From positions 73,816 through 137,815 of the forward strand of contig CAWHRD010000008.1 of the NCBI GenBank assembly GCA_963831745.1: a stretch of 64,000 nt of DNA, in the 5' to 3' direction. The notes beneath the pieces are model-generated. The model saw nothing but the letters and a program-made list of their open reading frames with translations. It was not told where the DNA came from and made no database searches. This document shows positions 553 to 64,000 of this stretch, one piece after another (within the stretch, counting starts at the first letter, position 1; every line of letters starts with the position of its first letter). Origin of the DNA: an uncultured Chloroflexia bacterium (lineage in GTDB: Bacteria > Chloroflexota > Limnocylindria > Limnocylindrales > CSP1-4). The position numbers and the translations under genes were made by a program.

Positions 553-1100
553 TCCGACACCGAGCGGCCCCGGTCGCCCCGCTTCTCCGCGTGCGACGAG
601 ACCTGATCTGCCCACGGGTGACCACCTGGTCAGAGGGTTCTCTCCGACACGCCCCCCGGACCTGACCACGACCTGTCCGGGTCCTGTCAACCATCCACGC
701 TCCGCCACCTGACGGAGACGGATGCGGCCGCGCTCCACGGATGACCGTCGCCGCGACCCTGGCGCGAGAAGTGGCGATCATCCACACAGGGATCGGCCTC
801 ATACGCCACCGGCCCCTCAATCTGGGACACCGCCCCACCTCGTCGCCTTCCCGTGCGCGAAGTCTCGGGGTGCCGGACGCCCGGAACGCCGGATCGTGCC
901 ACCCCGGAGCGCAGCAAACGTCGACGTGGGGGCCGTTCGACTCTCGTCAGATCGGTGACGCGCCCCTACGGTCAGCGGTTGGCGGGAGGCTCTGACGCGC
1001 GGCCCGCAACCCGGCCGCCGGGACCGCGCCGAGCCACTGGCGAGACCGACCCGTGCGTTCTCGAGCGCGCCTGGACACGCCAGGAGAAGGGGGACGGTCC

Positions 1101-4100
1101 ATGCTCGGCTCTCGCCCGACCAGCCCACGCAGGTCGCGTCCTCACGCCGTTGCCCTGGTGGCCGCCGCGGGCCTGATCTCCGCGACGCTCCTCCCCGGCA
1201 GTCCCGCTCCCTTCACGGCGCCCGCGACCCGGGCCGGAGGGGCGAAGCCGGCCTGCACGGCCGAGCAGGTCAAGCCGAACCTGGGCGACTTCATGGTGAA
1301 CCAGGGCCTCAACTACCCGATCCTCAATCGCGGCAAGCAGACGCTCGTGCGGTTCTTCCTCCGGATGCCGACGACCTGCTCCACCTCCTCCGCGATCACG
1401 ATGGCGGGAGCGAGCCTCACCGTGACGCTGACGTACGGGTTGTCCACGATCACGTCGAGCCCCCTCGGCCCGATCCAGGTCGTTGCCGGCACCCTCACGT
1501 CGGGGCTCCAGTCGAACGCGGCGTCCGACCCGCTCTTCCTGGTGCCCGCCAGTGTCCTCACCCCGCCCGCCTCGTGGACGTCGTCGTTCAAGGCGAGCTT
1601 CACGGCGACGGTTGCCTACAAGGTCGGGACCGACACGACTCCGAGGAGCCTGGCGCTCACGACCGGGCCGACCGGCCTCCCGCTCGAGGCCCAGTTCGAG
1701 CCGAAGACGAGCGCCCTGCGGATTCTCGTCGTGCCGATGGGCGACGCGAGCTCGACCGCGACGCAGTTCTCGGGCGCCGCCCAGGCCGCCGTCCAGAACG
1801 CGCTGCTCGACCTGTCCCGAATGGGTCCGTTCCCCGATGGGACCGGCGATCTCGCTTCGATGGCGACCGGGGGTGTTCGGTTCAGCATCGACCCCGGCCT
1901 CATGGACATCGGCCCCAAGAGCCCCAGCCCGGCGATTCCGACTTCCGGGAAGTCCTTCTGCGGCTCCGCGTCGAACTTCGCGGCGATCAGCAGTGCCCTA
2001 GCCGCTCGCCTGCAGAACTACAACCTCCTGAACCCGAACGCCCAGGCCGACCGAGTCCTTGGCGTGGTTGACGCAGCGATCAGCACCGGCGCGACCGGCG
2101 GCTGCGACGAAGGCCGGGCGGCCGTGCCAAGCGGCGGCAAGTCGGCGGTCGCCGCCTGGGTCCGGGCCGTCCCGGACGGCACGTCACCCTCGCAGACCGG
2201 CTCGGTCCTCGCGCAGGAGTTCCTCCACACGTTCGGGGGGTGCGCTTCGGCGTCGTCGTCCGACTCGCGCTGCCGCCCCGGCACCTACCACTCCACGACG
2301 ACGACGGACTTCTCGAACCTGCGCGGCTACAACCTGGCCTCCCGGGCGTGGCTGAGCAAGCCCCCGACCATCATGCGGTTCAACTCGGTCGCGTCCGTCT
2401 GGAACCGGACGACGACGCTGTACGAGACGTCTGACTACCTGCTCTTCTCGTGCATCCTGACGCCAAACTTCATCCTCCCGGCCGGCTATTCGAGCATCCC
2501 CGGGTGCACGAGCACGACAACGGGCTCGGCCGGGACAAGCTCGGGGGTCCCGGCCGGCCCCACGTTCTTCCTGAGCGGCTCCACCGACGGGGTGGGCACC
2601 GAGACCGCGTGCCCCGTAACGCCGGGCGGGACGACCGCCAGGTACCAGGCTCCCGGGACGACAGTATTCGACTCCTTCTACGGGTCGACGAGCGCCGACC
2701 TCAACGGTCAGGTCGACCCCGGTAGCCAGTACCGGCTGCGCTACTACGACGCGAGCGGCGCCCAGCTCGCCGACTTCGGCGTACCCACCGGATCATCCAA
2801 CGCGCAGCTCGACATGGGGAGCACGACGGCATCCCCCGGCCGGACGACCTTCTCGGCCGCGTTCGAATGGGACGTGTCGACGACTGACGTCGAGCAGGTC
2901 CGCCTGGTCCGGACGGGCGCGGGCGGCTCCGCCGCGGTTCTCTGGTGCCGCAACCGCACGGATCCTCCGGAGATCACGAGCGTGCTCTCGACGGGCGCGG
3001 ACGTTTCGCCGTGCCCCGACATCGGCACCGGCGGCCTCATCGCCTTCATCGACACCGACGTTCCGGGCGGCGCCGGCCCGACGAGCATCTGGGCCACCCG
3101 GTGCGGTACCGATCGCCGCCTGATCTGGCACAACCCGGGGCCGCAGGACCTTGACTACCCGGTCTGGTCACCGGACGGCTCGCGCCTCGCCTACTACGAC
3201 TGGAACCACGAGTCCTGGCGCGTGATCGACGCCGACGGTTCCGGAGAGCACGGTGTCGGTGCCTCGCCGGGGCTGCCGCACTACCTGAGGCTGACGTGGT
3301 CCCCGGACGGAACGAAGGTCGCCTACCTCGCCAGCGTCGACGAGTCAGGCAGCACGGTCCGGATCGTCGACGGCGCGAGCGGGGCCGTCGTCACGGACGT
3401 CACCTTCCCGGGCGACCCCGCCTACTCGCTCGACTGGTCGCCCGACGGTACGGAGTTCGCCTACGCCCTCGTCTGGGTCGCGAATGTCGACGGGTCGGGG
3501 ATCCCCACGCAAGTCGCGAACCTGGACGAGCTGGGGCTCACGGTCGCCGGCTTCGACAAGTGGTCGCCCGACGGGCGGCAGATTGCCCTGGCCGGCAACG
3601 ACGCCGAGAACAGCTACATCGTGCTCGCGTCTGTCGACGATGGTTCGATCACGACGATCGCGTCCTCGGCGGCTCCGGCTGGTTACCCGGAGGGCTTCCA
3701 GCGCCCGACCTGGTCGGCCGACGGAGCGAACATCCTCGCCGGCCGATTGGTGGGATCGACGAACCAGATCGTCTCGCTGCAGCTCGACAACCCTGAGCAA
3801 GCCCCGCACATCGTGATCGACGGCGTGGCGTCGCCGTACGCCAGCTGGGGGCCCGTGACGGCCGGGGCCCTCGGGACGATCTCGACGCCGACTCCAGACG
3901 ACGTGACCATGACCCTCACGTACTCGTGCCCCGGTACCGGGCAGGTCTTCCCGGTCGCGATCGGGATCCCTTCGTCGAAGGTGGGTGAAACGGAGGCGCA
4001 GTTCAACGCGACGTTTGATCCCACGCAGGCCTGCGCCGGCGGAACGCTAGAGGTCATCGCGAAGGATGGCTTCTCGGCCTCGGAGCCGGCTCCGATCGGC

Positions 4101-5072
4101 GCGCTTGCGTTGACACCGTCTCCGCCGGTCGTCGCGATCGACAACCCGATCGGCGGCCGCGCCTACGGCCCGACCGAGACGGTGGCGCTCCAGGGCCGGG
4201 CCATCGATCCCGAGACCGGGAGCCTGTGCGAATCCACGCCGTCGCCTTGCGCCTGGCGGCTCAAGAGCGGCACTACCACCGTCGACCTCCCCGTGCCCGG
4301 CCCGGCCGTCGACCTGCTCCCCGGGGATCCGATCCTGGCGGCGTTCATGAACGGCTCGGAGTGGAAGCCAGGGGCATACACGGCGACCCTTTCGGTGACC
4401 GGCAGCTCTGGAGAGGCCACGGCGGCGTCCGCAGCGTTCACCGTTGCGTTCCCGCCACTCGTGACCGTCAGCGGGGTGACCGACGGCGCGGTTTATCGGC
4501 TCGGCGCCGTGCCAAGGGCCGGCTGTCGGACCACCGACGGCGGCTCAGGCTTCGCCGCGCGGGCGACCGTGGCCCAGACGGGGGGGAACGGCAACGGAGT
4601 CGGTCTCTACACGGCCACTTGCGCCGGTGCCACGTCGGCGACAAGGCCGCCGGTGACGGCAGCACCCGTCTCGGTCACCTTCGCGGTCCAGTACACCGGC
4701 GTGAGCGGCGTCCTGCAGCCGATCAACCCGGACAACACGAGCATCTTCAACCGGAACCGGGTCGTGCCGGTGCGGTTCCGGATCGACGGCAGCCCGCGGG
4801 CGACCGGCTTCGCCACGGCCACGTGGACCCTCGTGCCGCAGCAGGTGTCCTGCCAGGCATTCAACCAGGCCAGGGCCGTCGTCGAGCAGGTCCTGCCGAG
4901 CACGCCGTCGAACACCTTCCGCTGGTACACGTGCGGCCAGGAGTACATCCACAACGCCAAGATCGACACCCTGCCGGGCGGGACCTGCTGGGTGTTCAAG
5001 ATCACGCTCGACGACGGCTCGACGCTGTGGCCTCCGACCGTCGTCACATCCCCGATCTTCAAGACGAGATGA
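1101..5072 (+). CDS. large secreted multidomain protein with TolB-like beta-propeller repeats
   Basis: ATG 1101 follows GGAGAAGGGGGA. Signal-like HAVALVAAAGLISATLL. Five WSPDG/WSADG propeller blades mid-protein (WSPDGSRLAYY, WSPDGTKVAYL, WSPDGTEFAY, WSPDGRQIAL, WSADGANIL). Ig-like C-terminal part. The long N-terminal region is unrecognised. Confidence 0.75.
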   Translation: MLGSRPTSPRRSRPHAVALVAAAGLISATLLPGSPAPFTAPATRAGGAKPACTAEQVKPNLGDFMVNQGLNYPILNRGKQTLVRFFLRMPTTCSTSSAITMAGASLTVTLTYGLSTITSSPLGPIQVVAGTLTSGLQSNAASDPLFLVPASVLTPPASWTSSFKASFTATVAYKVGTDTTPRSLALTTGPTGLPLEAQFEPKTSALRILVVPMGDASSTATQFSGAAQAAVQNALLDLSRMGPFPDGTGDLASMATGGVRFSIDPGLMDIGPKSPSPAIPTSGKSFCGSASNFAAISSALAARLQNYNLLNPNAQADRVLGVVDAAISTGATGGCDEGRAAVPSGGKSAVAAWVRAVPDGTSPSQTGSVLAQEFLHTFGGCASASSSDSRCRPGTYHSTTTTDFSNLRGYNLASRAWLSKPPTIMRFNSVASVWNRTTTLYETSDYLLFSCILTPNFILPAGYSSIPGCTSTTTGSAGTSSGVPAGPTFFLSGSTDGVGTETACPVTPGGTTARYQAPGTTVFDSFYGSTSADLNGQVDPGSQYRLRYYDASGAQLADFGVPTGSSNAQLDMGSTTASPGRTTFSAAFEWDVSTTDVEQVRLVRTGAGGSAAVLWCRNRTDPPEITSVLSTGADVSPCPDIGTGGLIAFIDTDVPGGAGPTSIWATRCGTDRRLIWHNPGPQDLDYPVWSPDGSRLAYYDWNHESWRVIDADGSGEHGVGASPGLPHYLRLTWSPDGTKVAYLASVDESGSTVRIVDGASGAVVTDVTFPGDPAYSLDWSPDGTEFAYALVWVANVDGSGIPTQVANLDELGLTVAGFDKWSPDGRQIALAGNDAENSYIVLASVDDGSITTIASSAAPAGYPEGFQRPTWSADGANILAGRLVGSTNQIVSLQLDNPEQAPHIVIDGVASPYASWGPVTAGALGTISTPTPDDVTMTLTYSCPGTGQVFPVAIGIPSSKVGETEAQFNATFDPTQACAGGTLEVIAKDGFSASEPAPIGALALTPSPPVVAIDNPIGGRAYGPTETVALQGRAIDPETGSLCESTPSPCAWRLKSGTTTVDLPVPGPAVDLLPGDPILAAFMNGSEWKPGAYTATLSVTGSSGEATAASAAFTVAFPPLVTVSGVTDGAVYRLGAVPRAGCRTTDGGSGFAARATVAQTGGNGNGVGLYTATCAGATSATRPPVTAAPVSVTFAVQYTGVSGVLQPINPDNTSIFNRNRVVPVRFRIDGSPRATGFATATWTLVPQQVSCQAFNQARAVVEQVLPSTPSNTFRWYTCGQEYIHNAKIDTLPGGTCWVFKITLDDGSTLWPPTVVTSPIFKTR

Positions 5073-15426: not shown

Positions 15427-15826
15427 GCCAGGCCGCCCGGTCGGTGGAACCGTCGGGCTCGTCGCGGAGCACGCCCCCGGTCACGGTCACCCGGAACAGG
15501 AGCGCGATCGCGTGCATCTCGCGGGGCCGGCCGTCGGGAAGCCGCCCGGGGTAGACGTGCGAGCGGTGGCCGATGATCCCTTCCACCCGCCCGACGAGCC
15601 CCGTCTCCTCCTCCAGCTCGCGCAGCACGGCGGCCGCGGGATCCTCGCCGAAGTCGATCCCGCCGCCGGGGAGCGTCCACGATCCGGGTGACGGCTCGCC
15701 CGGCGCCAGCCGGCAGCAGAGCAGCCGGTCGCCGTCGCCGCAGACGGCATAGGCGGCGACCCGCACGAGGCGGACGACGCCGTCCTCGCCGGCCGCGGCA
15801 CGGGTGCGCTCGGACCAGGGGGTCAT
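15347..15826 (-). CDS. NUDIX hydrolase
   Basis: Nudix box GGGIDFGEDPAAAVLRELEEETGL. Confidence 0.85.
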   Translation of the reverse strand: MTPWSERTRAAAGEDGVVRLVRVAAYAVCGDGDRLLCCRLAPGEPSPGSWTLPGGGIDFGEDPAAAVLRELEEETGLVGRVEGIIGHRSHVYPGRLPDGRPREMHAIALLFRVTVTGGVLRDEPDGSTDRAAWLTPDELSRERVVKMLRSALDVAFGGE

Positions 15827-15902
15827 GACGGCGAAGTATCGCCATCCGCGGCGGACTGCGCGAGCCCCAGCTCGCGGCGTCGCCTGGTGCCACGCGGTTG
15901 GA

Positions 15903-16695
15903 TCATGCCGCCGGGTGTTGCGCGTCGATCGCGAGCACGGCCTCGGCCGCGAGGTGGAGGAGAAGAGCGCGTCCCTCGGCGTGATGGGGCCATCCGCGTG
16001 GATCCCAGGCCGCGCCTGAGAGGTCGTCCCCCGCGTAGAGCATCTGGCCGAAGGAGACGCCCCGGAACCGCGCGACGGCGAAGAACGCGGCCGCCTCCAT
16101 CTCGACGGTTAGGCAGCCCTCCGCCACCCTGCGGCTCGATCTTCGCCCGCGTCTCACGGTAGAACCCGTCGGTCGTCCAGGTCTTGCCCGTCACGTGAGG
16201 GATGGCATGCCGCTCGAGGGTGGCCAGGATGGCGGCGACGGCGTCGTCCGTCGGTGCCACCTCCCGCGACGGCGGCGCGTAGTGGTAGCTCGTCCCCTCG
16301 TCGCGAACGGCCGCCGTCGGCACGACGATGTGACCGAGAGCGAGCTCCGGAACGAGCACGCCGGCGCCGCCGACCGCCACGAATGCTCGGCAGCCGAGGG
16401 CGATCAGCTCGTCCAGCCACCCGGCCGCCAGCGGCGCGCCGACGCCGGCCTGGGCGATCGCCAGGCGTCGCCCGCCGTAGTCGACCTCGTAGATCGGATG
16501 CGGGCCCATCTCGGACGCGAGCGCCCCGATCTCGCGACCGCCGAGCTCGGCGACGGCAGACGCGATCACGTCCCGAAAGAAGCAGAGAACGGCGTGCCGC
16601 GGCATGTCGAACGGCGCGTGGGCGAGCGCCGGCTCGATCACGGCCAATGGCGTCGGATCGAACTCGAGGATCGGAGCGTCGGGGAGGTCGGACAA
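15903..16695 (-). pseudogene. nucleoside phosphorylase (PNP_UDP_1 family) with a +1 frame break near 16129-16135
   Basis: The N-terminal two-thirds are in the frame of track ORF 15823..16965 (..GVGAPLAAGWLDELIALGCRAF..TWTTDGFYRETRAKIE). The C-terminus is in the frame of ORF 15903..16157 (RRVAEGCLTVEMEAAAFFAVA..). Start is TTG 16695 after AGGAAG, or GTG 16713. Confidence 0.7.
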
Positions 16696-16954
16696 TGGAC
16701 TTCCTGGTCGCACGCGGCAGGTGGGGGATCGACGCCGCGATCGTCGTCGCCCGACGTCGCGAGCGCAAGGCCCGGCGCGTTTCGACGGCCCCGGCAGGAC
16801 CACGGACGAGGCGATCGAGCTGCTCGTGCGACGGCCAGACCCGACGCCCGCCCAGGCTCCGGCCGCGCAAGGCTCACGGTCACGTCCCGGCGTAAGCGCA
16901 ACAGCGCGCTCGTCGCCGCGCCGCGTCCCGCGATCCGCGCAACTGATGGCGTCC

Positions 16955-17162
16955 GATCCTGTCAAATGCTGGCGGAGCGATCCTTACGGCATGTGGCCGG
17001 AGCCCGCGCGTCGCCGGAGCCCCTCCAGGAGGCGCGCGATCCTGTCACCGGTGCCGCGGGGCAGGCACCTGATCAACCTCCGCCCCGTCGCGGGACGGCT
17101 CGTCCTTGAGCGGGCAGGGGCCTTCGCACATACGGCTCGCGTGACGCGCATTTGACAGGATC
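16955..17162. mobile_element. MITE-like 208-bp interspersed element, copy 1
   Basis: 15-bp terminal inverted repeats GATCCTGTCAAATGC (16955-16969) and GCATTTGACAGGATC (17148-17162). An internal third copy of GATCCTGTCA sits near 17037. It is clearly homologous, in reverse orientation, to 63140-63347. Confidence 0.5.
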
Positions 17163-17197
17163 GCCGGGCGGCCCATGGCGAGAGCCGCGTGGCCGCG

Positions 17198-17302
17198 GCG
17201 CGATGCCGCCACGCTGCGGCGCGATGCCGCCACGCTGGGGCGCGATGCCGCCACGGCGCGGCGCGATGCCGCCACGGCGCGGCGCGATGCCGCCACGCTG
17301 CG
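17198..17302. repeat. 21-bp tandem repeat x5
   Basis: GCGCGATGCCGCCACGCTGCG units at 17198, 17219, 17240, 17261 and 17282, with 2-3 variable bases at the unit end. Confidence 0.9.
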
Positions 17303-17334
17303 GCACCACATCCTGGGACTTGACCACCCCAACC

Positions 17335-17350
17335 TTCACGCGAACGTGAA
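17335..17350 (+). promoter_or_regulatory. perfect dyad TTCACG-CGAA-CGTGAA at the 5' end of the MerR gene
   Basis: Inverted repeat read directly from the sequence. TTGACC lies at 17320-17325 just upstream. Function is not established. Confidence 0.3.
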
Positions 17351-18063
17351 TGTTGTGGGATCATCCGCACATGTCGTCCCCAGCTTCCCCGCGCGTCGCG
17401 CCCGCGGTCCGCCCCGCTTCGGCGGATCCGGCGGCGGCCGATCGCGCGGCGGTAGATCCGGCGGCGGCCGATCCGGCGGCGGCCGATCGCGCGGCGGTAG
17501 ATCCGGCGGCGGCCGATCCGGCTGCCGATCCGGCGGCGGCCGGTCGCGCGTCGCCGACCAGGTCCGAGCCCGCCCCGGCTCCCGTTCCGCCACGGCTGCT
17601 TCGCATCCAGGAGGTCGCGTCGGAGACCGGCCTGACGCCCCGCTCGATCCGCTACTACGAGGAGATCGGGCTCCTCCGCCCGGCCGCCCGCTCGCAGGGG
17701 TCCTATCGCCTGTACGACGCGTCGGACCTGGAGCGGCTGCGGTTCATCCGCGAGCTGCGCGACAACGCCGGCTTCAGCCTCGGCGAGATCTCGCGCCTGC
17801 TCGAGGACGAGGAGGCGCGCATCCGCGACCGCGAGCGCTTCCGGGCTGCCGGCGACGAGGCCGAGAAGCGCGCGATCCTGCGCGACCTCATCTCCCGGAT
17901 GGACCGCCAGGTCGCGACGCTCACCGAGAAGGCCGATCGCCTGCGCGAGATGATCGAGGCGGCCGAGTCGCGCCGCGAGCACCTGCGGGCCCACCTCGCC
18001 GAGCTCGAGGGCGGGTCGCCCGCCCACGCGGCCGGCGCGCCGCACGCGGAGACCGGGCCGTGA
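17350..18063 (+). CDS. MerR family transcriptional regulator with repetitive Ala/Asp/Pro N-terminus
   Basis: HTH region LLRIQEVASETGLTPRSIRYYEEIGLLRP..YRLYDASDLERLRFIRELR, then a C-terminal coiled-coil region. Start could be ATG 17350 or ATG 17371. Confidence 0.8.
   Translation: MLWDHPHMSSPASPRVAPAVRPASADPAAADRAAVDPAAADPAAADRAAVDPAAADPAADPAAAGRASPTRSEPAPAPVPPRLLRIQEVASETGLTPRSIRYYEEIGLLRPAARSQGSYRLYDASDLERLRFIRELRDNAGFSLGEISRLLEDEEARIRDRERFRAAGDEAEKRAILRDLISRMDRQVATLTEKADRLREMIEAAESRREHLRAHLAELEGGSPAHAAGAPHAETGP
17425..17541. repeat. 15-bp GATC-phased tandem repeat (~8 units) inside the MerR 5' coding region
   Basis: Alternating GATCCGGCGGCGGCC and GATCGCGCGGCGGTA units, encoding ADPAAADRAAVDPAA... 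Confidence 0.85.
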
Positions 18064-21307: not shown

Positions 21308-22047
21308 AGGTCCGCGACATCGTGGCCGGCGGCGCCTCGCGCGTGGAGTACCACGGCCCGGGCGCGGAGGTGCCGCGCGACCTCGCCCGCTACATCGACC
21401 ACACGCTGCTGCGGCCCGACGCCGCGGCCGCCGACATCGACCGCCTGTGCGACGAGGCCGCCGAGCACGGCTTCGCCGCCGTCTGCGTGAACCCCGCCTG
21501 GGTCCGCCGCGCCGCCGATCGACTCCGCGGGACCGGTGTCGCCGTCGCCTCGGTCGTCGGGTTCCCGTTCGGCGCCACCCCGCCCGACGTCAAGGCCTTC
21601 GAGGCCCGCCGGGTCATCCGCGACGGGGCCCGCGAGGTCGACATGGTGATCAACATCGGGGCCCTCAAGAGCGGGATGCACGACCTCGTCCGCGAGGACA
21701 TCGCCCGCGTCTCGGACGCCTGCCACGAGGGCGGCGCGGCGAACAAGGTGATCATCGAGGCCGCCCTCCTGACCGACGCGGAGAAGGTCGTCGTCTGTCG
21801 TCTTGCCCAGCAGGCCAAGGCCGACATGGTCAAGACCTCGACCGGCTACGCGAAGGGCGGCGCGACGGTCTTCGACGTGGCGCTGATGCGGGAGACGGTC
21901 GGACCGAAGATGGGCGTCAAGGCGGCCGGCGGGATCCGGACGGCGGACGACGTGCAGGACATGATCGCGGCCGGCGCGACCCGCATCGGGGCCTCGGCCG
22001 GGGTCAGCATCGTCAGCGGGGAGAAGGGTGCGCATGGGCAGTACTGA
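21304..22047 (+). CDS. deoC: deoxyribose-phosphate aldolase, paralog 1
   Basis: [80 protein letters not shown] 21304 is taken as the start. It could instead be fused to the upstream 49-aa ORF if an indel is present. Confidence 0.85.
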
Positions 22048-22738
22048 GCACATCGCCGAAGTCCCCGCCGACCTCGCCCCCTACATCGACCACACGCTCC
22101 TCGACCCGGCCGCGACCCGGGCCGACATCGACGCCCTGTGCGCCGAGGCGAAGCGCTACGGCTTCGCGGCCGTCTGCGTGAACCCCGCCTGGGTGCGCCG
22201 CGCCTACGAGAACCTCGCCGGGACCAGGGTCGCGGTCGCCTCGGTCATCGGCTTCCCGCTCGGGGCCGCCACGACCGAGGTGAAGGTCCTCGAGACGCGC
22301 CGGGCTCTCCGCGACGGAGCCCGCGAGATCGACATGGTCATCAACGTCGGGCGGCTCAAGAGCGGGATGAACGAGTGGGTCGGCGACGAGATCCGCAAGA
22401 TCGCCGAGGTCTGCCACGAGGCCGGAGCGATCACGAAGGTCATCATCGAGACGTCGCTCCTGACCGACGCCGAGAAGGTGACCGCCTGTCGCCTCGCGAA
22501 GGAGGCCAGGGCCGACATGGTCAAGACGTCGACCGGCTGGGGGACCGGCGGCGCCACCGTCGCCGACGTGGCGCTGATGCGCGCGACGGTCGGCCCGGAG
22601 ATGGGCGTCAAGGCGTCCGGCGGCATCCGCACCGCCCAGGACGTGCAGGACATGATCGCCGCCGGCGCGACCCGCATCGGGGCCTCGGCCGGCGTCAAGA
22701 TCGTCACGGGAGAGAAGGGCGCAGATGGGCAATATTGA
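22034..22738 (+). CDS. deoC: deoxyribose-phosphate aldolase, paralog 2
   Basis: Same motifs as paralog 1 ([38 protein letters not shown]). ATG 22034 lies 5 nt after GAAGGG (the track starts it at GTG 22028). Overlaps paralog 1 by 14 nt. Confidence 0.85.
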
Positions 22739-29118: not shown

Positions 29119-29410
29119 CGCATCCTATCGGACGCTTGCGTCGCGGACCGTATGACGGGTCAGCCGGGTGGCGAGGCGCCGGCGGATGCTCGCAGGACCC
29201 TCGTCGAGGGCTTCACTGCGGCCCGATGCTGCCAGCGGTATGGAAGCGGAGACGCGTGACAGGATCGGCGGCCGGTCCGGGCTCGGCGACCGCGGCGCGA
29301 CAGCCGGCGACCGCGCATACGGTTCGCCCGCTGCACTTCTGATAGGACCGTGCGAGGCCGAGGCAGGCGCCCGATGCCGGCTCTGCGCCAGGCCCTGCGC
29401 GCAGTCGGCG

Positions 29411-40552: not shown

Positions 40553-40857
40553 CCTACTTCACCGTGAGCGTGCCGGTCATGTTCGGGTGGACCGTGCAGA
40601 CGAAGCCGTAGGTCCCGGCGGGGAGCGCCGGCACGTCGTAGGTCCGGGTGTCGACGCCGCTGAAGATCTCGCCCTGCCAGACCTCGCGCCCGGTGGGCGA
40701 ACCCTCGTGGATCGCGACGTTGTGGGGGATCCCGGCGTCGTTGTTGGTGAACACGATCTTGAAGGGCGTGTTCGCCGGCGCTTCCAGGGTCGCCGTGTCG
40801 TACGCGATCCCCTGGGCGCTCAGCGTGAGGGTCGCCCCGGCACCCGGCGCCTGGCTG
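40553..40857. repeat. ~305-bp near-identical direct repeat, copy A (cupredoxin-coding)
   Basis: Aligned by eye to 44295-44599. Only two substitutions were seen (at 40763 and 40845 in copy A), and both are synonymous. Confidence 0.85.
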
Positions 40858-41756
40858 CCGCCCGGCGCGGCGCTGCCGCCCGGCGCGGCGCTGCCGGAGG
40901 GGGCGGGGGCCGTCCCGCCCGACGCGGCCGGCGCCTGGGACGCCGTCCCGCCCGACGGGGCTCCGCCGGCGCCTCCGGACGCGGTCTCGGCGCGGGGCGG
41001 GATCACCCCGCCGGCGATGAGCAGCGAGCCCACGAACAGGACGAGGAAGGTGATGAGCGTTCCCGTCGGGAAGCGCGGCGCGGGGATGTTCTCCAGGTGG
41101 CCCGTGGCGTCGGCCTTCTCGACCTCCCGGTACTCCTTGCGGGCGTCGTTGAGCCAGCCGAGGAGACCGATGACCGTCATCAGGATCCCGGCCACGAAGA
41201 TGACGGGGTCGATGACCAGCCCGAGGAGCAGCGCAGCGGAGGCGATCGCCGCGAGGAGCGGCCGGAACGACGGGCCGGGGATGTGGACCCCCGGCGGCGG
41301 TCCCTCGCCGACGACCGCCGGCAGCGCCGTGGGCGGCTCAAGGGCGTCGTACTCGCGGTTGGCCTCGCGGCCCCAGTAGAGCAGCGACCCGGCCATCGCC
41401 AGGACGCCGACCGCGAGGGCCACCACGCCGAACGGCTCGACGACGACGGTCGTACCGGTGCCGCCCGCGCCCGGCTCGATCTTGATGAAGAGCGTCGAGA
41501 GGACGAGGGAGAAGGCGCCGGCCGCCGCCAGGAACGGGGCCAGGCTGGGCCCCGGCATGTGGATCCCCTCGGGAACCGGAGCGGCCGGCAGGGGTCGCGA
41601 CACCAGAGGCCCGGCGGCGGCGTAGCGCCGGACCAGCCAGACGAGATAGAGGCCGACGGCGGCGAGCACCGCGAGCGGGATCAGGAGGATGAGCGCGTTC
41701 CAGTCGGGCGAGACCAGCGAGCCGACGATCTCGAGGATCTTGTCCCAGAGCGACAT
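40554..41756 (-). CDS. polytopic membrane protein with C-terminal amicyanin-like cupredoxin domain
   Basis: N-terminal helices with a duplicated motif (GIHMPGPSLAPFLAAAG / GVHIPGPSFRPLLAAIA), then a Gly/Ala/Pro linker. Type-1 Cu ligands IPHNVAIH ... FVCTVHPNM. Confidence 0.75.
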   Translation of the reverse strand: MSLWDKILEIVGSLVSPDWNALILLIPLAVLAAVGLYLVWLVRRYAAAGPLVSRPLPAAPVPEGIHMPGPSLAPFLAAAGAFSLVLSTLFIKIEPGAGGTGTTVVVEPFGVVALAVGVLAMAGSLLYWGREANREYDALEPPTALPAVVGEGPPPGVHIPGPSFRPLLAAIASAALLLGLVIDPVIFVAGILMTVIGLLGWLNDARKEYREVEKADATGHLENIPAPRFPTGTLITFLVLFVGSLLIAGGVIPPRAETASGGAGGAPSGGTASQAPAASGGTAPAPSGSAAPGGSAAPGGSQAPGAGATLTLSAQGIAYDTATLEAPANTPFKIVFTNNDAGIPHNVAIHEGSPTGREVWQGEIFSGVDTRTYDVPALPAGTYGFVCTVHPNMTGTLTVK

Positions 41757-41778
41757 GGGGTCGGGCCCGGCCTCCGGG

Positions 41779-41958
41779 CTACTGCTCGTCGCCGCGGGGC
41801 GAGCCTGCGGCGAGGACGTACGACATCAGGCCCATCGCGACGCCCAGCGCCACGAGCATCGTGACGCCCCCGGGGTCGTGGCTGAGCAGCCCGTAGACGA
41901 TCCCGACGACGATGAACAGGAGTCCCGCGAGGAGCGTGTACCGGGGCTTGATGATCAT
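41779..41958 (-). CDS. 59-aa two-helix membrane protein, possibly the N-terminal half of oxidase subunit IV (CtaF-like)
   Basis: ATG 41958 after GGAGGG. MIIKPRYTLLAGLLFIVVGIVYGLLSHDPGGVTMLVALGVAMGLMSYVLAAG. Lies 15 nt after the subunit III gene. Too short for the ORF track. Confidence 0.5.
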   Translation of the reverse strand: MIIKPRYTLLAGLLFIVVGIVYGLLSHDPGGVTMLVALGVAMGLMSYVLAAGSPRGDEQ

Positions 41959-44294: not shown

Positions 44295-44599
44295 CCTACT
44301 TCACCGTGAGCGTGCCGGTCATGTTCGGGTGGACCGTGCAGACGAAGCCGTAGGTCCCGGCGGGGAGCGCCGGCACGTCGTAGGTCCGGGTGTCGACGCC
44401 GCTGAAGATCTCGCCCTGCCAGACCTCGCGCCCGGTGGGCGAACCCTCGTGGATCGCGACGTTGTGGGGGATCCCGGCGTCGTTGTTGGTGAACACGATC
44501 TTGAACGGCGTGTTCGCCGGCGCTTCCAGGGTCGCCGTGTCGTACGCGATCCCCTGGGCGCTCAGCGTGAGGGTCGCCCCGGCACCGGGCGCCTGGCTG
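44295..44599. repeat. ~305-bp near-identical direct repeat, copy B
   Basis: See copy A at 40553-40857. The two copies are offset by 3742 bp. Confidence 0.85.
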
Positions 44600-45504
44600 G
44601 CACCCGGCGCGGCGCTGCCGCCCGGCGCGGCGCTGGCGGAGGGGGCGGCGCTGCCGGAGGGGGCGGGCGACGGCGTCGGCGGAGGCGCCAGGGACTCGGC
44701 GAGCCAGGCGTTGAAGGCGTCCCGGCTCTGCACCACGACCTCGAACTCCATCGCCTGGTGGAGCAGCCCGCAGAACTGGGTGCACTGGCCGCGGTACGTC
44801 CCCTCGCGATCGGCGAGGAACTGGATCACCTGGTCCTTGCGGGGGGTGATGTCACGCTGGTAGAGGAAGGCCGGAACGTAGAACGAGTGGATCACGTCGT
44901 TGGAGTGCATCTGCAGCTCGACGGTCTCGCCCACCGGGACGTGCATCTGGGGGGGCGTCCAGTTGGTGCGGTCGCCGCCGGGCGGCGGGATGCCGATGAC
45001 CGTGACGCACTTGCCCTTGTTGGCGGGCGCCCCGCAGTCCTCCCAGCGGACGTCCTGCGGCGCGTAGACGAACTGCCACTGCCACTGGTAGGCGACCACG
45101 CCGATCCGGACCGGCGGGTTCTCCTTGCGGGCGTCGATCGTGTTCAGCGTCTGCCACGAGACGACGAACAGGGCGAGGACGATCATGATCGGGATCGCCG
45201 TCCAGATGATCTCGAGCTTGTTGCTGCCGTGGATCTGGGGCGGCAGCTCGTCGTCGCCCTTGCGGCGGCGATAGCGCAGCACGGCGAAGAGGATCAGCCC
45301 CTCGACGAGGAAGAAGACCCCGATCCCGATCAGGAAGACGATGGTGTAGAGGTTGCGGACGGCCTGCCCCTGCACCGTCGCGGCGTCCGGCGGGAGTGCC
45401 GTCCGGGGATCGAAGTCCGTGCAGCCCGTCACGAGGAGGGCGGACGCAGCGAGCAGGAGAACGAGCACCGCCCGGCGTAGCGGTCTCCCCTGGGTGAACC
45501 TCAT
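44296..45504 (-). CDS. ctaC: cytochrome c oxidase subunit II fused to a C-terminal amicyanin-like cupredoxin domain
   Basis: ATG 45504 after GGGAGG. Lipobox LLVTGC and two helices. CuA site HSFYVP..CTQFCGLLHQAM. Pro/Ala/Ser linker, then a cupredoxin identical to that of the 40554..41756 product. Confidence 0.9.
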   Translation of the reverse strand: MRFTQGRPLRRAVLVLLLAASALLVTGCTDFDPRTALPPDAATVQGQAVRNLYTIVFLIGIGVFFLVEGLILFAVLRYRRRKGDDELPPQIHGSNKLEIIWTAIPIMIVLALFVVSWQTLNTIDARKENPPVRIGVVAYQWQWQFVYAPQDVRWEDCGAPANKGKCVTVIGIPPPGGDRTNWTPPQMHVPVGETVELQMHSNDVIHSFYVPAFLYQRDITPRKDQVIQFLADREGTYRGQCTQFCGLLHQAMEFEVVVQSRDAFNAWLAESLAPPPTPSPAPSGSAAPSASAAPGGSAAPGASQAPGAGATLTLSAQGIAYDTATLEAPANTPFKIVFTNNDAGIPHNVAIHEGSPTGREVWQGEIFSGVDTRTYDVPALPAGTYGFVCTVHPNMTGTLTVK

Positions 45505-45617
45505 CAGCCTCCCTCGACAGTGCATGCTGCCGTGCTCCGCCCGCGCGGGCGGCCTTCTCCCGGCCGCTCTCCGCCGGGACGCTGCGGACGGGAGCCCGCG
45601 CATGATACCCGAAGTGC

Positions 45618-46808
45618 GTGCGGAGATGCGCATACGTGCCATGCGTTGCTGAGCACGCGACAGCCGGGCGGCCGAAGACGCGCGAGAATGCGCGCGTGAC
45701 CGACCGCCCGAGGCTGCGCCGCCTCGCCTCCGCACCCTCGCTCCGCGCTCGGCGCGTGCGCCCGGTCGCGGGCCGCGCGCTCCGGGCCGGCGATCGCGAG
45801 GCGACCCGGCCCGCCGCCCGTCCTGCGCCCGCCGCACGGCTGCTGGCGGCGCTCCCCGTGGTGGCGCTCCTGGCGTTCGTCGGGGTGCCCGCGGCCCTGG
45901 CCCACGGGTCGGAGGTGCCGCCGCCGCCCGACCTGAACGCGTTCCTGTTCGGCTGGTCGTTCTATCCGCAGGTCGTGATCCCGCTCCTCGCGGCGGCCGC
46001 CGCGTACCTGTGGGCGGTCCGGCGGGTCAACGCGGCCCACCCGGCCAACCCCGTCCCGATCGACCGACCCGTCTTCTTCCTGGTCGGGCTGGCGTGCATC
46101 GGGGTTGCGCTCCTGTCGGGGATCGAGCGCTACGACACCGAGCTATTCGCCGTCCACATGGTCCAGCACCTGCTCCTCGTCTTCGGGGCGGCGCCGGCGA
46201 TCGTGCTGGCCGCGCCGATCACGCTGCTGCTGCGCGTCGCGACGCCCGACGTGCGCAGCCGCTGGATCCTGCCGGTGCTCCGCTCGCGGGTCGTCAAGGT
46301 GATCGCCCACCCGCTCGTCGCCTGGCTCCTCTTCACCTTCATCATGTGGGGCAGCCACGTCTCGCCCCTGTTCGACGCGGCGCTCGAGGACCCGCTGGTC
46401 CACGACCTGGAGCACGGGCTCTACCTCGCGAGCGCCCTGCTGTTCTGGATGCCCGTGATCGGGCGCGACCCCAGCCCGTATCGCCTCCCGTACCCGGTCC
46501 GGGTCTTCTACCTGTTCCTGCAGATGCCCCTCAACTCGCTCCTGGGGGTGGCGATCCTGTTCTCCGGGCAGGTCCTCTATCCGCACTACGCCACGACGGG
46601 CCGGCCGTGGCCGCCGTCGCCGCTGGAGGACCAGCAGCTCGCCGGGGCGCTGATGTGGGGCATCGGCGACGCGGGCTTCATCGTCGCGATCCTGCTCGTC
46701 ATCGCCGCGTGGATGCGCGATGAGGAGGCGACGACGCGGCGGCGCGAGGCGGCCGAGGACGAAGTGGCCGCGAGGCGGGCGGCCCGCGAGGGGACCGGGA
46801 CGGCCTGA
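45618..46808 (+). CDS. ctaG: cytochrome c oxidase assembly factor CtaG (Bacillus/caa3 type)
   Basis: FLFGWSFYPQVV, HMVQHLLLVFGAAPAIVLAAP, WGSHVSPLFDAALEDPLVHDLEH, LFWMPVIG. Start uncertain (GTG 45696 is possible). Confidence 0.8.
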   Translation: MRRCAYVPCVAEHATAGRPKTRENARVTDRPRLRRLASAPSLRARRVRPVAGRALRAGDREATRPAARPAPAARLLAALPVVALLAFVGVPAALAHGSEVPPPPDLNAFLFGWSFYPQVVIPLLAAAAAYLWAVRRVNAAHPANPVPIDRPVFFLVGLACIGVALLSGIERYDTELFAVHMVQHLLLVFGAAPAIVLAAPITLLLRVATPDVRSRWILPVLRSRVVKVIAHPLVAWLLFTFIMWGSHVSPLFDAALEDPLVHDLEHGLYLASALLFWMPVIGRDPSPYRLPYPVRVFYLFLQMPLNSLLGVAILFSGQVLYPHYATTGRPWPPSPLEDQQLAGALMWGIGDAGFIVAILLVIAAWMRDEEATTRRREAAEDEVAARRAAREGTGTA

Positions 46809-61352: not shown

Positions 61353-62126
61353 ATGCCCCGTCCCCCAGACCGCGCAGGGCCGCGCTCCCCCGGGAGCCCG
61401 GTCGACGAGCTCGCGGACCTGCGTCTCCTCGAGGCCCAGCTCGAGCGGATGCGCGGGATGCTGTTCGGCTACTCGAGCCTCTTCTTCGCCACGATCCGCA
61501 ACTGGACGTTCCTGTCCATCGGGCTGCTGGTCCTCGGCTGGAGCGGCGTCCTCCCGGCCGCGGTCGTCCCGGTCCCGTTCATCGTGCCGTTCGCGTTCCT
61601 CGAGACCGGCTACCTGTTCTGGTACACGGTGTTCGCCCGCCGCCACGCCGAGCGCCTGGAGCAGGCGATCAACACCCGCGTCGGTGCCGACGTCCTCGTC
61701 GCCCACCGCCTGGAGGCCGCCTACTTCTACCCGCCCGACGCGCCGAAGATCGCCGGCCTCTCGTTGGGCAACCCGCTCGGCTTCATGAGCGCCATGACCG
61801 TCGGCTACTCGGTCGGCGCCGCGCTCATCTGGGCGGCCGGGCTCGTCTCCACCGCCGCCTACGTCGCGTCGCAGGGGGGCGGCATCTTCGAGGGCGGCCT
61901 CGTCGGTCTCGTCATCCCCGCGGCGATCGCCTGGACCGCGGTCATCGCCGCCTACCTGGTGTGGGCGTCGCTCGCCCGGACCGACGAGGAGCGGCTGCTG
62001 GTCGCGCTCGACGCGGGCTACCCGCGACCGGCACCCGACCGGGCGACGACCGCGCTCGACCCCGGTGATCCGTCGCCGGCCCAGGACCTCGCACGCTCCG
62101 GCCCGACCCCCGAGGAGGATCGATGA
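61353..62126 (+). CDS. integral membrane protein, unknown function
   Basis: ATG 61353. Helices FLSIGLLVLGWSGVLPAAVVPVPFIVPFAFL etc. Its stop forms an ATGA overlap with the proline dehydrogenase start. Confidence 0.55.
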   Translation: MPRPPDRAGPRSPGSPVDELADLRLLEAQLERMRGMLFGYSSLFFATIRNWTFLSIGLLVLGWSGVLPAAVVPVPFIVPFAFLETGYLFWYTVFARRHAERLEQAINTRVGADVLVAHRLEAAYFYPPDAPKIAGLSLGNPLGFMSAMTVGYSVGAALIWAAGLVSTAAYVASQGGGIFEGGLVGLVIPAAIAWTAVIAAYLVWASLARTDEERLLVALDAGYPRPAPDRATTALDPGDPSPAQDLARSGPTPEEDR

Positions 62127-63097
62127 TCACGCACCCGGCCCACGGGTCCATCCCCGAGCGATCGCTGCGCGCCACGTTCATCTGGCTCTCGCACCGCAAG
62201 GCGCTCGGGCAGCTCTCGACCCGGGTCCCGATCACGCGGCCGATGGTCCGCCGCTTCATCGCCGGCGAGTCGCTCGACGAGGTCCTCCCGGCGCTGGAGG
62301 CGTTGCGGGACGGCGGCTACCTGACGACCGTCGATGTTCTCGGCGAGTCGGTGGACTCCGCCGACGCCTGTGGGGCGGCCGCCGGCCGCTACGAGGAGAC
62401 GCTCGACGCGCTTGCCGCCGGCGGGCTGGAGCGGAACGTCAGCCTGAAGCTGACCCAGATGGGCCTCGACATCGACCGCGACCTGTGCCGGGACACTGTC
62501 GCCACCGTCTTTCGCAGGGCGGCCGAGCACGGCGCCTTCGTCCGGATCGACATGGAGGACCACACGAAGACGGACGCCACGCTCGACCTCTGGCGCGAGC
62601 TGCGCGCGGTCAACCCGAACAGCGGGGTCGTGATCCAGGCCGCGCTTCGCCGCTCGTCGGGGGACGTCGAGACGCTCATCGTCGAAGGTGCCCGGGTCCG
62701 CCTCTGCAAGGGCGCCTACAACGAGCCGGCGTCCGTGGCGCTGCGCGATCGCGAGGAGATCGACGCCGCGTACGAGAGGCAAGCCCGGCGGCTCATGGCC
62801 GACGGGAGCTACCCGGCGCTCGCCACCCACGACGGGCGGCTGATCGGCCGGCTGATCCGCTGGGCCGAGGCGGAGGGGATCGCCCGCGACCGCTACGAGT
62901 TCCAGATGCTCCACGGCATTCGCCGCGACCTGCAGGCGCAGCTGCTGCAGAAGGGGTTCCGCGTCCGCGTCTACGTCCCGTACGGCACGCAGTGGTACCC
63001 GTACTTCATGCGGCGCCTGGCGGAGAAGCCCGCGAACGTCATGTTCATGCTCCGCTCGCTGGCGAAGGAGGGGACGGGGGGCTCGTCGCAGGGCTGA
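62123..63097 (+). CDS. proline dehydrogenase (monofunctional PutA-like)
   Basis: FIAGESLDEVL, VSLKLTQMGL, VRIDMEDH, RLCKGAY, EFQMLHGIRRD, VYVPYG..YFMRRLAE. Confidence 0.9.
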   Translation: MITHPAHGSIPERSLRATFIWLSHRKALGQLSTRVPITRPMVRRFIAGESLDEVLPALEALRDGGYLTTVDVLGESVDSADACGAAAGRYEETLDALAAGGLERNVSLKLTQMGLDIDRDLCRDTVATVFRRAAEHGAFVRIDMEDHTKTDATLDLWRELRAVNPNSGVVIQAALRRSSGDVETLIVEGARVRLCKGAYNEPASVALRDREEIDAAYERQARRLMADGSYPALATHDGRLIGRLIRWAEAEGIARDRYEFQMLHGIRRDLQAQLLQKGFRVRVYVPYGTQWYPYFMRRLAEKPANVMFMLRSLAKEGTGGSSQG

Positions 63098-63139
63098 TCG
63101 CGGCCCGCGGCGGCCTCGCGGCTGGCGGGGCCGCGTGGC

Positions 63140-63347
63140 GACCCTGTCAAATGCGCGTCACGTGAGCCGTATGTGCGATGGGCACTGCCCGCTGAGCGAC
63201 GATCCGTCCCGCGGCTGGGCGGAGGTTGATCAGATGCCTCCCCCGCGCTACCGGTGACAGGATCGCAGGCCCGCTGGACGGGCCCCGGCCAGGCGCGGGC
63301 ACCGGCCACGTGCCGTAAGGATCGCTCCGCCAGCAATTGAGAGGATC
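63140..63347. mobile_element. MITE-like 208-bp interspersed element, copy 2 (inverted relative to copy 1)
   Basis: GACCCTGTCAAATGC at the left end, degenerate GCAATTGAGAGGATC at the right end, and an internal GGTGACAGGATCGC. Same length as copy 1, with roughly 80-85% identity to its reverse complement by eye. Confidence 0.5.
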
Positions 63348-63583
63348 GGACCATCAGCGGCGCGGCTGGCGGGCAGACGGCGCGGCTCGCGGGAAGCGGC
63401 GTCGTACGGGCAGCGGCGCAGTGGTGAAGCGGCGCGGTGGGGAAGCGGCGCGCCGCCGAGGCGCCGACGCCGTCGCGCTCGCGCCGCCGCGGGCGTCCGC
63501 CGGTGGCAGCGTCGCGCCGCGGGCCGGCACCCCCCCCGCGTCGCCGCCGTCGCGCCGGCTGCTGGGCCGGCCACCCGGCCCGC

Positions 63584-64000
63584 TTACCGGACCGCGAACG
63601 AGCGCTTCGCCAGGCCCATCCAGTAGCCGTCGATCCGGAAGTCGGGCGCCTCGTCGGCAACCGTCGCGGCGCCCAGGGTGACGAAGAGCGGCGCGAGGTG
63701 CTCCAGGGTCGGATGCGCGTACGGCATCCCCGGGGCGCGGTTCCGGAAGTCGAAGAGGGCATCGACGTCGCCCGCCGCCAGGGCCTCGGTGGCCCAGCGA
63801 TCGAAGTCGATCGACCACGCCGGGGCGCCCGGCCGCCCGCCCATGTACTCGCGAACGTACGGGAGCCCGTGCGTCAGGAAGCCGCTGCCCACCACCAGGA
63901 CTCCCTCGTCGCGGAGCGGCGCGAGGCGCCGCCCGATGCGGAAAAGGTGCTCGGGGTCGAGGTCCGGCATCGACATCTGGAGCACCGGGACGTCGGCCTC
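63584..64000 (-). CDS. class III extradiol dioxygenase (LigB / 4,5-DOPA dioxygenase-like), 5' end outside window
   Basis: VVGSGFLTHGL, FDFRNRAPGMPYAHPTLEHLAPLFV. The ORF runs off the window end. Confidence 0.75.
   Translation of the reverse strand, partial: EADVPVLQMSMPDLDPEHLFRIGRRLAPLRDEGVLVVGSGFLTHGLPYVREYMGGRPGAPAWSIDFDRWATEALAAGDVDALFDFRNRAPGMPYAHPTLEHLAPLFVTLGAATVADEAPDFRIDGYWMGLAKRSFAVR

Follow-up and report, generated by a model that had tools for sequence, protein, structure and literature searches.

What is the 208-nt inverted-repeat element that occurs twice in a 64,000-nt stretch of a Limnocylindrales genome, and how did it come to lie there? The stretch (hereafter the window) is C8:73816-137815 of genome G000, a member of the Chloroflexota (Limnocylindrales) with a genome of 3.86 Mb, 73% G+C and 10 contigs, which we refer to as the own genome. 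A repeat search of the window returned positions 16951-17174 against 63128-63351 as its longest inverted repeat, 224 nt at 87% complementarity, while the runner-up reached only 63 nt at 75%. We find that the two copies belong to a non-coding, inverted-repeat-bounded, dispersed and genus-restricted family, whose ends match the last codons of a gene with a predicted nuclease fold in what appears to be an undescribed gene-repeat partnership of the Limnocylindrales. A preliminary description made from the letters alone had already recognized two reverse-complementary 208-bp segments, intergenic and without a transposase gene, and all of this was confirmed. Its 15-bp terminal inverted repeats are likewise present, although they are the outermost part of a longer repeat of ~41 nt: in copy 1 they are perfect (GATCCTGTCAAATGC at 16955-16969 and its reverse complement GCATTTGACAGGATC at 17148-17162), and in copy 2 one end is slightly degenerate (GACCCTGTCAAATGC at 63140-63154) and the other more so (GATCCTCTCAATTGC at 63333-63347, reverse strand). 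The internal third core that it had noted, GATCCTGTCA, occurs in both copies: copy 1 has it at 17038-17047, copy 2 at 63255-63264 on the reverse strand. It had also seen weaker likeness beyond one end of the element; this extension is real but passes both ends, since BLAST aligns 16915-17200 with 63106-63386 at 84%.

In the own genome BLASTN detected copies 1 and 2 only, and in 60 relatives it returned one full-length homolog (genome G006, 70% identity) and several matches to the last ~45 nt alone. The loci found in this way share one plan, with ~40-nt imperfect terminal arms and a diverged interior between them. An arm profile, R1, was built from the sequences of 16 arms (alignment A2). With this model the own genome gave 32 arm hits, and the 42 genomes of the genus gave 0-35 each, 23 of them being positive; an nhmmer search of the whole own genome gave 41 arm hits, which resolve into about 17 paired elements of 177-250 nt. 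The own-genome pairs invariably consist of a plus-strand arm followed by a minus-strand arm, 146-250 nt apart. Copy 1 was matched at C8:90767-90812 (+) and C8:90936-90982 (-), with E about 5e-10. The window also holds a third, diverged member, matched at C8:102933-102976 (+) and C8:103122-103162 (-), whose neighbours, by Pfam, are a pyrimidine-nucleoside phosphorylase gene on one side and a YceI-like gene on the other. The preliminary description had proposed that a count of only two copies in the genome would point to a local duplication; BLASTN does give that count, but the profile search overturned it. BLASTN copy counts, two in this instance, can therefore miss a 17-member family that is conserved only at its ends.

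The family alignment and a logo of 116 arms showed that the arm is ~41 nt long, imperfect and built of blocks: a head ATCCTnTCAnATG, a palindrome CTCGC-nnn-GCGAG and a tail ACCGTATG. The central palindrome is weaker in the logo than the head and tail, and a further T, conserved at 97%, lies six bases inward of the tail. An inner inverted pair of the head motif is present across the family alignment, and the internal third core is one half of this pair. Arm and flank statistics were taken from 58 elements, all of which carry the ~41-nt inverted repeats at both ends; the two arms of one element are ~67% identical. The elements are short (177-250 nt) and non-coding, with no conserved open reading frame (ORF), and inspection of the positions at which copies 1 and 2 differ showed no 3-nt codon periodicity.

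The origin of the arms is suggested by a 229-nt size class of elements, in which more than 90 nt beyond one end are conserved in many genomes. These nucleotides form the 3' portion of a gene on the minus strand. The 229-nt class occupies one syntenic locus in 13 genomes, and in 13/13 the element overlaps the 3' end of the gene, which in the own genome lies outside the window at C1:670643-669861, minus strand. The reading frame runs into the arm, where TTCCTATCAGATGCTCGCGTGGCGAACCGTACGGCAGC encodes FLSDARVANRTAA, followed by RSSRRRVR, and the stop codon usually falls within the inner head motif. In all, the arm matches the last ~15 conserved codons of the gene (…ALSFLSDARVANRTAA…). The same frame can be read in copy 1, whose left outer arm translates as ILSNAGGAILTAC and whose right outer arm translates as ILSNARHASRMC, resembling the tail FLSDARVANRTAA of the protein.

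The encoded protein has 236-260 amino acids, and its N-terminus is an XRE-type helix-turn-helix (HTH) domain (Pfam HTH_31), which by fold matches the HTH domains of HigA and of controller (C) proteins. In the C-terminal domain, GERG109-112, D115 and E130-x-K132 are invariant in 35 diverse sequences. The Pfam match of this domain is weak (YhcG_C, E=0.03). An AlphaFold model of the protein (pLDDT 83.9) gave Foldseek matches to the restriction-like endonuclease domain of R2 proteins, to VC1899, to Can2 and to cap-snatching endonucleases. Judging from the model and the motif, the partner protein is a plausible DNA enzyme with a fold of the PD-(D/E)XK nuclease superfamily and a D…(D/E)xK motif, and catalysis is predicted; we refer to it as the nuclease. 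Its family counts 652 database members, none with an annotation beyond XRE regulator, and 280 family loci in species-representative genomes, almost all of them from Chloroflexota or Limnocylindrales metagenome-assembled genomes (MAGs).

In the AlphaFold model the arm-encoded residues 212-229 form a strand and a helix. Relatives of 35-55% identity in which group-1 arm DNA is not detectable (group 1 being the family of copies 1 and 2 together with the own-genome nuclease gene) keep the tail motif [AG]L[SA]F[LV][SA][DN]…[RK]RVR. Since the protein tail is thus conserved where the arm is not found, we conclude that the arm derives from the gene and not the gene from the arm. Read from the outside inward, the arms give ILS[ND]ARVANRM, and 110/116 are open in that frame while 6/116 contain a stop; the arm logo consists of blocks of conservation with no codon periodicity. 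Together, the open frame and the block-like logo fit a sequence that came from coding DNA and was afterwards selected as a DNA site, and the logo is also consistent with the protein-binding module that the preliminary description had listed as an alternative. A reading of the elements as small-protein genes was rejected, because neither the copy differences nor the logo show codon periodicity and the translatability of the arms reflects coding descent.

We extended these observations to 34 distant loci of the gene family by local alignment with shuffled controls. A reverse complement of the gene's own arm was detected 143-216 nt downstream above the 95% threshold at 25/34 loci and above the 99% threshold at 20/34, and the mirrored orientation scored above the direct one (paired Wilcoxon p=5.6e-7). 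No arm signal was detected upstream of the nuclease gene at these 34 loci. Distant paralogs in the own genome (on C6 and C2; 27-31% identity) have different C-termini and no mirrored arm. The mirrored-arm association appears to be limited to the subfamily with an ALSF…RRVR tail.

Three separate gene lineages each have an arm sequence and a dispersed repeat family of their own. Besides group 1, there is group 2, defined by a 48-50% paralog from other species within the genus, in which the four-site layout is kept with other sequences (TTTCCTCGCCAATG-N11-ATCACTAACCC). Model R2, made for this arm, found dispersed plus/minus pairs in 8/8 genomes with the group-2 paralog and in 0/4 without it, including G000 and G006. 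Two genomes, G030 and G010, hold both genes and both repeat families. Group 3 comes from other genera and has the arm …CCTGCCAT-GTGCA-N5-TGCAC-CTTGG; model R3 gave 7-11 arm hits in each of its four source genomes and 4 in a related genome (G066-G070), and none in four controls. The three arm types have little in common beyond TTCCTG.CA. The central palindrome differs by lineage yet stays a palindrome, as would be expected of an operator bound by an HTH dimer.

Within the genus, the distribution of the group-1 gene could be compared with that of its arms. The genomes compared are MAGs that are 54-95% complete, so the absence of a gene or an insertion sequence (IS) from any one of them is not absolute. 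All 13 gene-positive genomes were arm-positive (13/13), against 10/29 gene-negative ones (Fisher p=4.6e-5), and the median number of arm hits was 10 against 0. Gene presence is patchy and requires at least 6-7 gain or loss events on a species tree made from a single gene, proline dehydrogenase. Arm counts follow the gene in sister contrasts: G000/G006 (32/35 hits) against G019/G062 (0/0), G001/G009 (13/14) against G013/G015 (0/0), and G030 (20) against G064 (0). Gene-negative G061, G065 and G033 keep a few, weaker arms.

The gene occurs once per genome. A NUDIX gene adjoins it in 13/13 genomes, and a guaB-like gene lies opposite in the 12 loci that are not cut by a contig end. In 8 gene-negative genomes the NUDIX and guaB-like neighbours are 100-170 nt apart, and the guaB side of the locus in G000 keeps the ancestral spacer with its GCCGTACAATCC box. 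Given these short gene-negative spacers and the survival of the ancestral spacer in G000, an [element + gene] block of ~1.1 kb is the unit of presence and absence at this one locus. In the own genome the block spans C1:669553-671000, and the other loci are L131 and L241-L252. Between NUDIX and guaB, G011, G065, G022 and G004 have other DNA of 1 kb or more. A duplicated NUDIX 3' end flanking the block was considered as well and discarded, the likeness being too weak in DNA of 73% G+C.

The history of the two window copies could be followed at their own loci. The convergent proline dehydrogenase/dioxygenase pair around copy 2 is conserved across the genus, with orthologous loci in 40/42 genomes. 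The copy-2 site is filled in G000 and G006 only and empty in 28 other genomes of the genus; where it is empty, 12 nt separate the stop codons of the two genes in G062, and 22-55 nt do so in G007, G012 and G063. The merR gene beside copy 1 is conserved in the genus with no element adjoining it, that is, copy 1 is absent there in all relatives. On either side of the element, copies 1 and 2 are alike for a further 35-45 nt, a flank that the G006 ortholog of copy 2 does not have in common with them. From the filled and empty sites, and from the flank common to copies 1 and 2 but not to G006, it follows that copy 2 is the older insertion, common to G000 and the closest relative G006, and copy 1 a recent duplicate, confined to G000, that was made with its flank, inverted and placed 46 kb away at a synteny breakpoint. 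The phosphorylase gene to the left of copy 1 lies on a different contig from merR in G062, which is why we take copy 1 to mark a rearrangement breakpoint. As inverted repeats, copies 1 and 2 bracket a 46-kb segment, from merR to proline dehydrogenase, that is syntenic in G062 and G006, and recombination between them could invert it. The spacer 3' of proline dehydrogenase has gained other repeats elsewhere, namely TTGCGTTCAA-type units (L050, G011) and GGGATTGCCGGCACG tandem units (L057, G001), and is a hot spot for repeat gain.

A chromosomal enzyme gene that is linked to a population of short repeats recalls the REPIN-RAYT systems of Gammaproteobacteria, in which doublets of repetitive extragenic palindromes (REPs) go together with a tyrosine transposase that is associated with REPs (RAYT) (PMC3116915; bioRxiv 10.1101/2021.07.10.451892). 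On balance we favour, with some reserve, a gene-repeat system of this kind with a different nuclease as its driver and with arms that are recognition sites taken from the last codons of the nuclease. In this model the arms would be DNA recognition sites derived from the last conserved codons of a single-copy HTH + PD-(D/E)XK gene, whose reading frame ends inside a "master" copy of the element. The nuclease would bind the arms, probably through the palindrome and the flanking blocks, and its activity would occasionally copy elements to new intergenic sites with no duplication of the target. Each gene lineage would keep a cognate repeat population, which would fade when the gene is lost. REPIN populations decay after loss of the RAYT, and the weaker arms of some gene-negative genomes match this (bioRxiv 10.1101/2021.07.10.451892).

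Several observations weigh against this explanation. The gene is not bracketed by arms, and an element is found only at its 3' end, which is not an IS-like layout. Copy 1 carries the flank of copy 2 and looks like a recombinational duplication rather than a precise, end-defined transposition. Within an element, identity between the two arms is only about 67%. The gene is missing from ten arm-positive genomes; many of these are incomplete MAGs, but G061 and G065 are 90-94% complete and have 7 arm hits each. The tree behind the co-distribution rests on a single gene. Finally, a master copy would fit the cognate pattern even if the nuclease were not the mover, since any copying of the gene-adjacent module would suffice. 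We nevertheless favour a co-evolving factor over such passive copying, because dispersed copies have kept their arms while their interiors have diverged beyond BLAST recognition, and because the three arm types share so little. The adjacent nuclease gene is the obvious candidate for this factor.

A more far-reaching version of this proposal, which we put forward tentatively and to which we give rather less than even credence, is that the system represents a second kind of "resident replicator", mechanistically unrelated to REPIN-RAYT. Here, a vertically inherited nuclease would recognize a bipartite site within its own last codons and copy ~200-nt four-site modules into intergenic positions, again with no target duplications; tail and site would co-evolve as the same nucleotides, and repeated nicking might make tandem arrays.

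If, instead, the protein were mainly a transcription factor, and its nuclease fold were used for sensing or oligomerisation, the elements could be operator modules of its regulon, with arms scattered by recombination or replication slippage. The HTH domain does resemble those of C proteins and antitoxins, which bind palindromic operators, each arm has a small palindrome that changes with the gene lineage, and copy 1 lies in the divergent promoter region of merR and the phosphorylase gene. However, elements occur in convergent, co-directional and divergent spacers and keep no consistent place with respect to promoters, copy 2 is flanked by the ends of two genes, and the master site is at the 3' end of its gene and not at the promoter. 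The invariance of D…ExK across 35 diverse members would argue for a retained enzymatic activity, and the insertion of whole 200-nt four-site modules into 12-nt spacers would be left unexplained. We consider this alternative improbable.

The preliminary description had leaned towards a miniature inverted-repeat transposable element (MITE), a non-autonomous transposon. That part of the suggestion which concerns a dispersed inverted-repeat family with insertion polymorphism has held. A classical MITE, however, would be a deletion derivative of an ordinary IS, moved by cut-and-paste by a DDE transposase that is elsewhere or missing. Such an origin would account for elements that are short, non-coding, multi-copy, bounded by terminal inverted repeats and patchy among species, and the parental IS could be missing from MAGs of 54-95% completeness. 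To look for target-site duplications, we compared the best direct repeat at the element ends (offsets ±6) with a null in which flanks were swapped between elements. None was found: 4.10 nt were observed against 4.11 nt in the null, with no consistent offset outside the element. A search for the autonomous partner with the same terminal repeats, as the preliminary description had suggested, was also negative, in that every arm pair in the 42 genomes, incomplete MAGs among them, is 130-250 nt apart and none brackets a gene. Sixteen seemingly unpaired arms proved on inspection to have weak second arms or to belong to truncated short elements. In addition, three lineages show arms that correspond to the coding end of a syntenic gene that is not an IS gene, and copy 1 was duplicated along with its flanks. 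We therefore regard a classical MITE as very unlikely.

We think still less of a structured small RNA or 3'-untranslated-region hairpin family, in which the arms would pair into a rod-like RNA that stabilises or terminates transcripts, as E. coli REPs do. The terminal arms can pair in minimum-free-energy folds, several copies lie downstream of genes, and the master copy follows and overlaps a gene 3' end. In contrast, no Rfam match was obtained at the gathering score, nor at E<=1 for three loci, and fold z-scores were weak (-0.9 to -1.9 for both strands of both copies). Arm complementarity within an element (0.665) was no higher than between elements (0.671), with 1520 of 2000 permutations at least as high. 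Watson-Crick pairing was possible at 68% of arm positions, and G·T and A·C combinations were equally frequent (131 against 134), so that neither arm-arm covariation nor the G·U bias of a transcribed strand is seen. The element is moreover quasi-symmetric, and it is found either way round with respect to its neighbours. The structured RNA that the preliminary description had offered as an alternative thus has no support. Mobilisation of a REP/REPIN family by a RAYT, an HUH Y1 transposase, would suit the small palindrome of each arm beside an invariant short tag, CCGTATG, the arrangement of arms as inverted doublets and the lack of a target-site duplication, but it is refuted for these assemblies and can hardly be right, as neither the own genome nor any other arm-bearing genome has a PF01797 (Y1_Tnp) match, the sole hit among the 42 being in arm-less G004, in a search that detected its controls.

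To our knowledge, REPIN-RAYT is the textbook case, and essentially the only one, of a chromosomal single-copy enzyme that maintains its own short-repeat population over the long term. The system described here resembles it in having a single-copy enzyme gene at a fixed chromosomal locus, inherited vertically and with a repeat copy beside it. It also resembles it in its short, non-autonomous inverted-repeat elements, tens in number and extragenic, which are few or absent where the gene is missing and show no target-site duplication. In both, each enzyme lineage has its cognate repeat, and two pairs can coexist in one genome, as in G030 and G010. Unlike a RAYT, however, the enzyme is an XRE-HTH + PD-(D/E)XK nuclease and not an HUH/Y1 transposase. 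The elements are longer (about 200 nt against about 100 nt), their arms are not selected to pair into a hairpin, and the arm is part of the coding sequence of the gene, with a master copy that overlaps the stop region. Each genome has fewer copies, about 5-17 elements, tandem arrays lie against the element ends, and mobilisation is inferred.

Bacterial MITEs such as Correia of Neisseria, RUP of Streptococcus and Nezha of cyanobacteria are likewise short, non-coding and intergenic, with terminal inverted repeats and presence/absence polymorphism; the present elements differ from them in the lack of a target-site duplication and of any parental IS found, in ends that come from a non-IS gene, and in the inner second pair of end motifs. 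With the restriction-modification C proteins and their C-box operators (C.AhdI, C.Esp1396I, C.BclI), the nuclease shares an N-terminal HTH domain in sequence and fold, and the arms hold a short palindrome of the kind bound by an HTH dimer. In contrast to C proteins, the nuclease joins its HTH to a domain of nuclease fold, the sites are located at the gene's 3' end and scattered through the genome as 200-nt modules, and the gene, with its NUDIX and guaB-like neighbours, was not seen to adjoin any restriction or methylase gene. A terminal inverted repeat that overlaps the end of the transposase ORF is a common layout among IS. As in such IS, the last codons of the enzyme double as the recognition sequence of a mobile unit, which locks protein tail and DNA site together. 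Unlike in such IS, the arm within the gene is the left end of a downstream element and not the right end of a gene-containing one, and the gene stands outside the repeat-bounded unit and does not multiply. We found no description of such a gene-repeat system in the literature.

Many elements are accompanied by tandem arrays. Arrays with a period of 7-38 nt were present in the 100-nt flanks of 31 of the 58 elements (53%), and of 13 of the 17 in the own genome (76%), often beginning within a few bases of an arm. The background was 6.5% for random genome pieces and 7.7% for crude intergenic-like pieces, the latter diluted by coding DNA. Examples are the 21-nt array beside copy 1 (17184-17304), L091 315-391 and, elsewhere in the own genome, C4:125011 and C4:96619, both with arrays on both sides. 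The gene-adjacent modules of group 2 are likewise abutted by tandem arrays. The elements may cause the arrays, for example by repeated staggered nicking and fill-in, or may simply prefer such spacers.

The features of the window that bear on the elements are collected in Table 1. The true start of the phosphorylase gene to the left of copy 1 is near 16600-16650, as judged from a frame plot of G+C at third codon positions (GC3). The 5' third of the merR ORF contains, at 17404-17550, 15-nt repeats starting with GATC (repeat family D6), which encode an Ala/Asp/Pro-rich N-terminal extension.

Table 1. Coordinates of the inverted-repeat elements, their parts and their neighbours in the window.
Feature	Position	Strand	Description	Basis
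Copy 1, group-1 family	16955..17162	+	Inverted-repeat element, 208 nt	Inverted repeat, arm profile
Left outer arm of copy 1	16955..16996	+	Head ATCCTGTCAAATG, degenerate central palindrome, tail CCTTACGG	Alignment, 116-arm logo
Inner inverted pair of head motif, copy 1	17038..17078		GATCCTGTCA ... TGATCAACC around a short GGTGCC/GGCACC dyad	Read directly
Right outer arm of copy 1	17121..17162	-	Head, GCGCGTCACGCGAGC palindrome, tail CCGTATG	Alignment, logo
Flank co-duplicated with copy 1	16915..16954		Matches dioxygenase-side flank of copy 2; not in G006 ortholog	Alignment, BLAST
Second co-duplicated flank of copy 1	17163..17200		Matches proline-dehydrogenase-side flank of copy 2	Alignment, BLAST
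Copy 2	63140..63347	-	208 nt; the older copy, common to G000 and G006	Inverted repeat, arm profile
Full extent of likeness to copy-1 region	63106..63386	-	Element and flanks	BLAST
Third, diverged family member	29121..29349		229 nt	Arm profile
Tandem array	17184..17304		21-nt period, about 6 units, GCGCGATGCCGCCACGCTGCG; beside copy 1, upstream of merR	Repeat family D4
PNP_UDP_1 phosphorylase-family gene	15823..16650	-	Left neighbour of copy 1	Pfam PF01048, 2.1e-25; GC3 frame plot
MerR-family regulator	17350..18063	+	Right neighbour of copy 1; repeat-rich N-terminus	Pfam MerR_1, 2.8e-22
Proline dehydrogenase	62123..63097	+	Ends 42 nt from copy 2	Pfam Pro_dh, 8.2e-35
LigB-type extradiol dioxygenase	63584..64000	-	Convergent with proline dehydrogenase; 3' end 236 nt from copy 2	Pfam LigB, 4.1e-10

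Three further features of the window were seen. A c-di-GMP-II-GAG riboswitch aptamer at 976-1060 (Rfam RF03169, 72.9 bits) lies upstream of a long plus-strand ORF (996-5072). A 300-nt direct repeat at 99% identity (repeat family D2), at 40553-40852 and 44295-44594, 3.7 kb apart and associated with minus-strand ORFs 40554-41825 and 44296-46026, looks like a recent duplication or gene conversion. Between 23488 and 26018, three paralogous segments resemble bacterial-microcompartment shell-protein genes (repeat families D7/D8), and deoC-like repeats at 21363-22457 may be part of the same metabolic cluster.

If the proposed partnership between nuclease and repeats is correct, the logic of REPIN-RAYT would be realized by an unrelated class of enzyme in an uncultured phylum of the soil, which would imply a convergent origin of such partnerships and provide a second system in which ideas on within-genome replicators could be tested. 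A sequence-specific HTH-nuclease whose recognition site is long (~41 nt) and varies by lineage would be gained as well, and more than 650 proteins that are annotated only as XRE-family regulators would be given a role. For the Limnocylindrales themselves, it would account for one class of intergenic repeats and perhaps for the tandem arrays that adjoin them.

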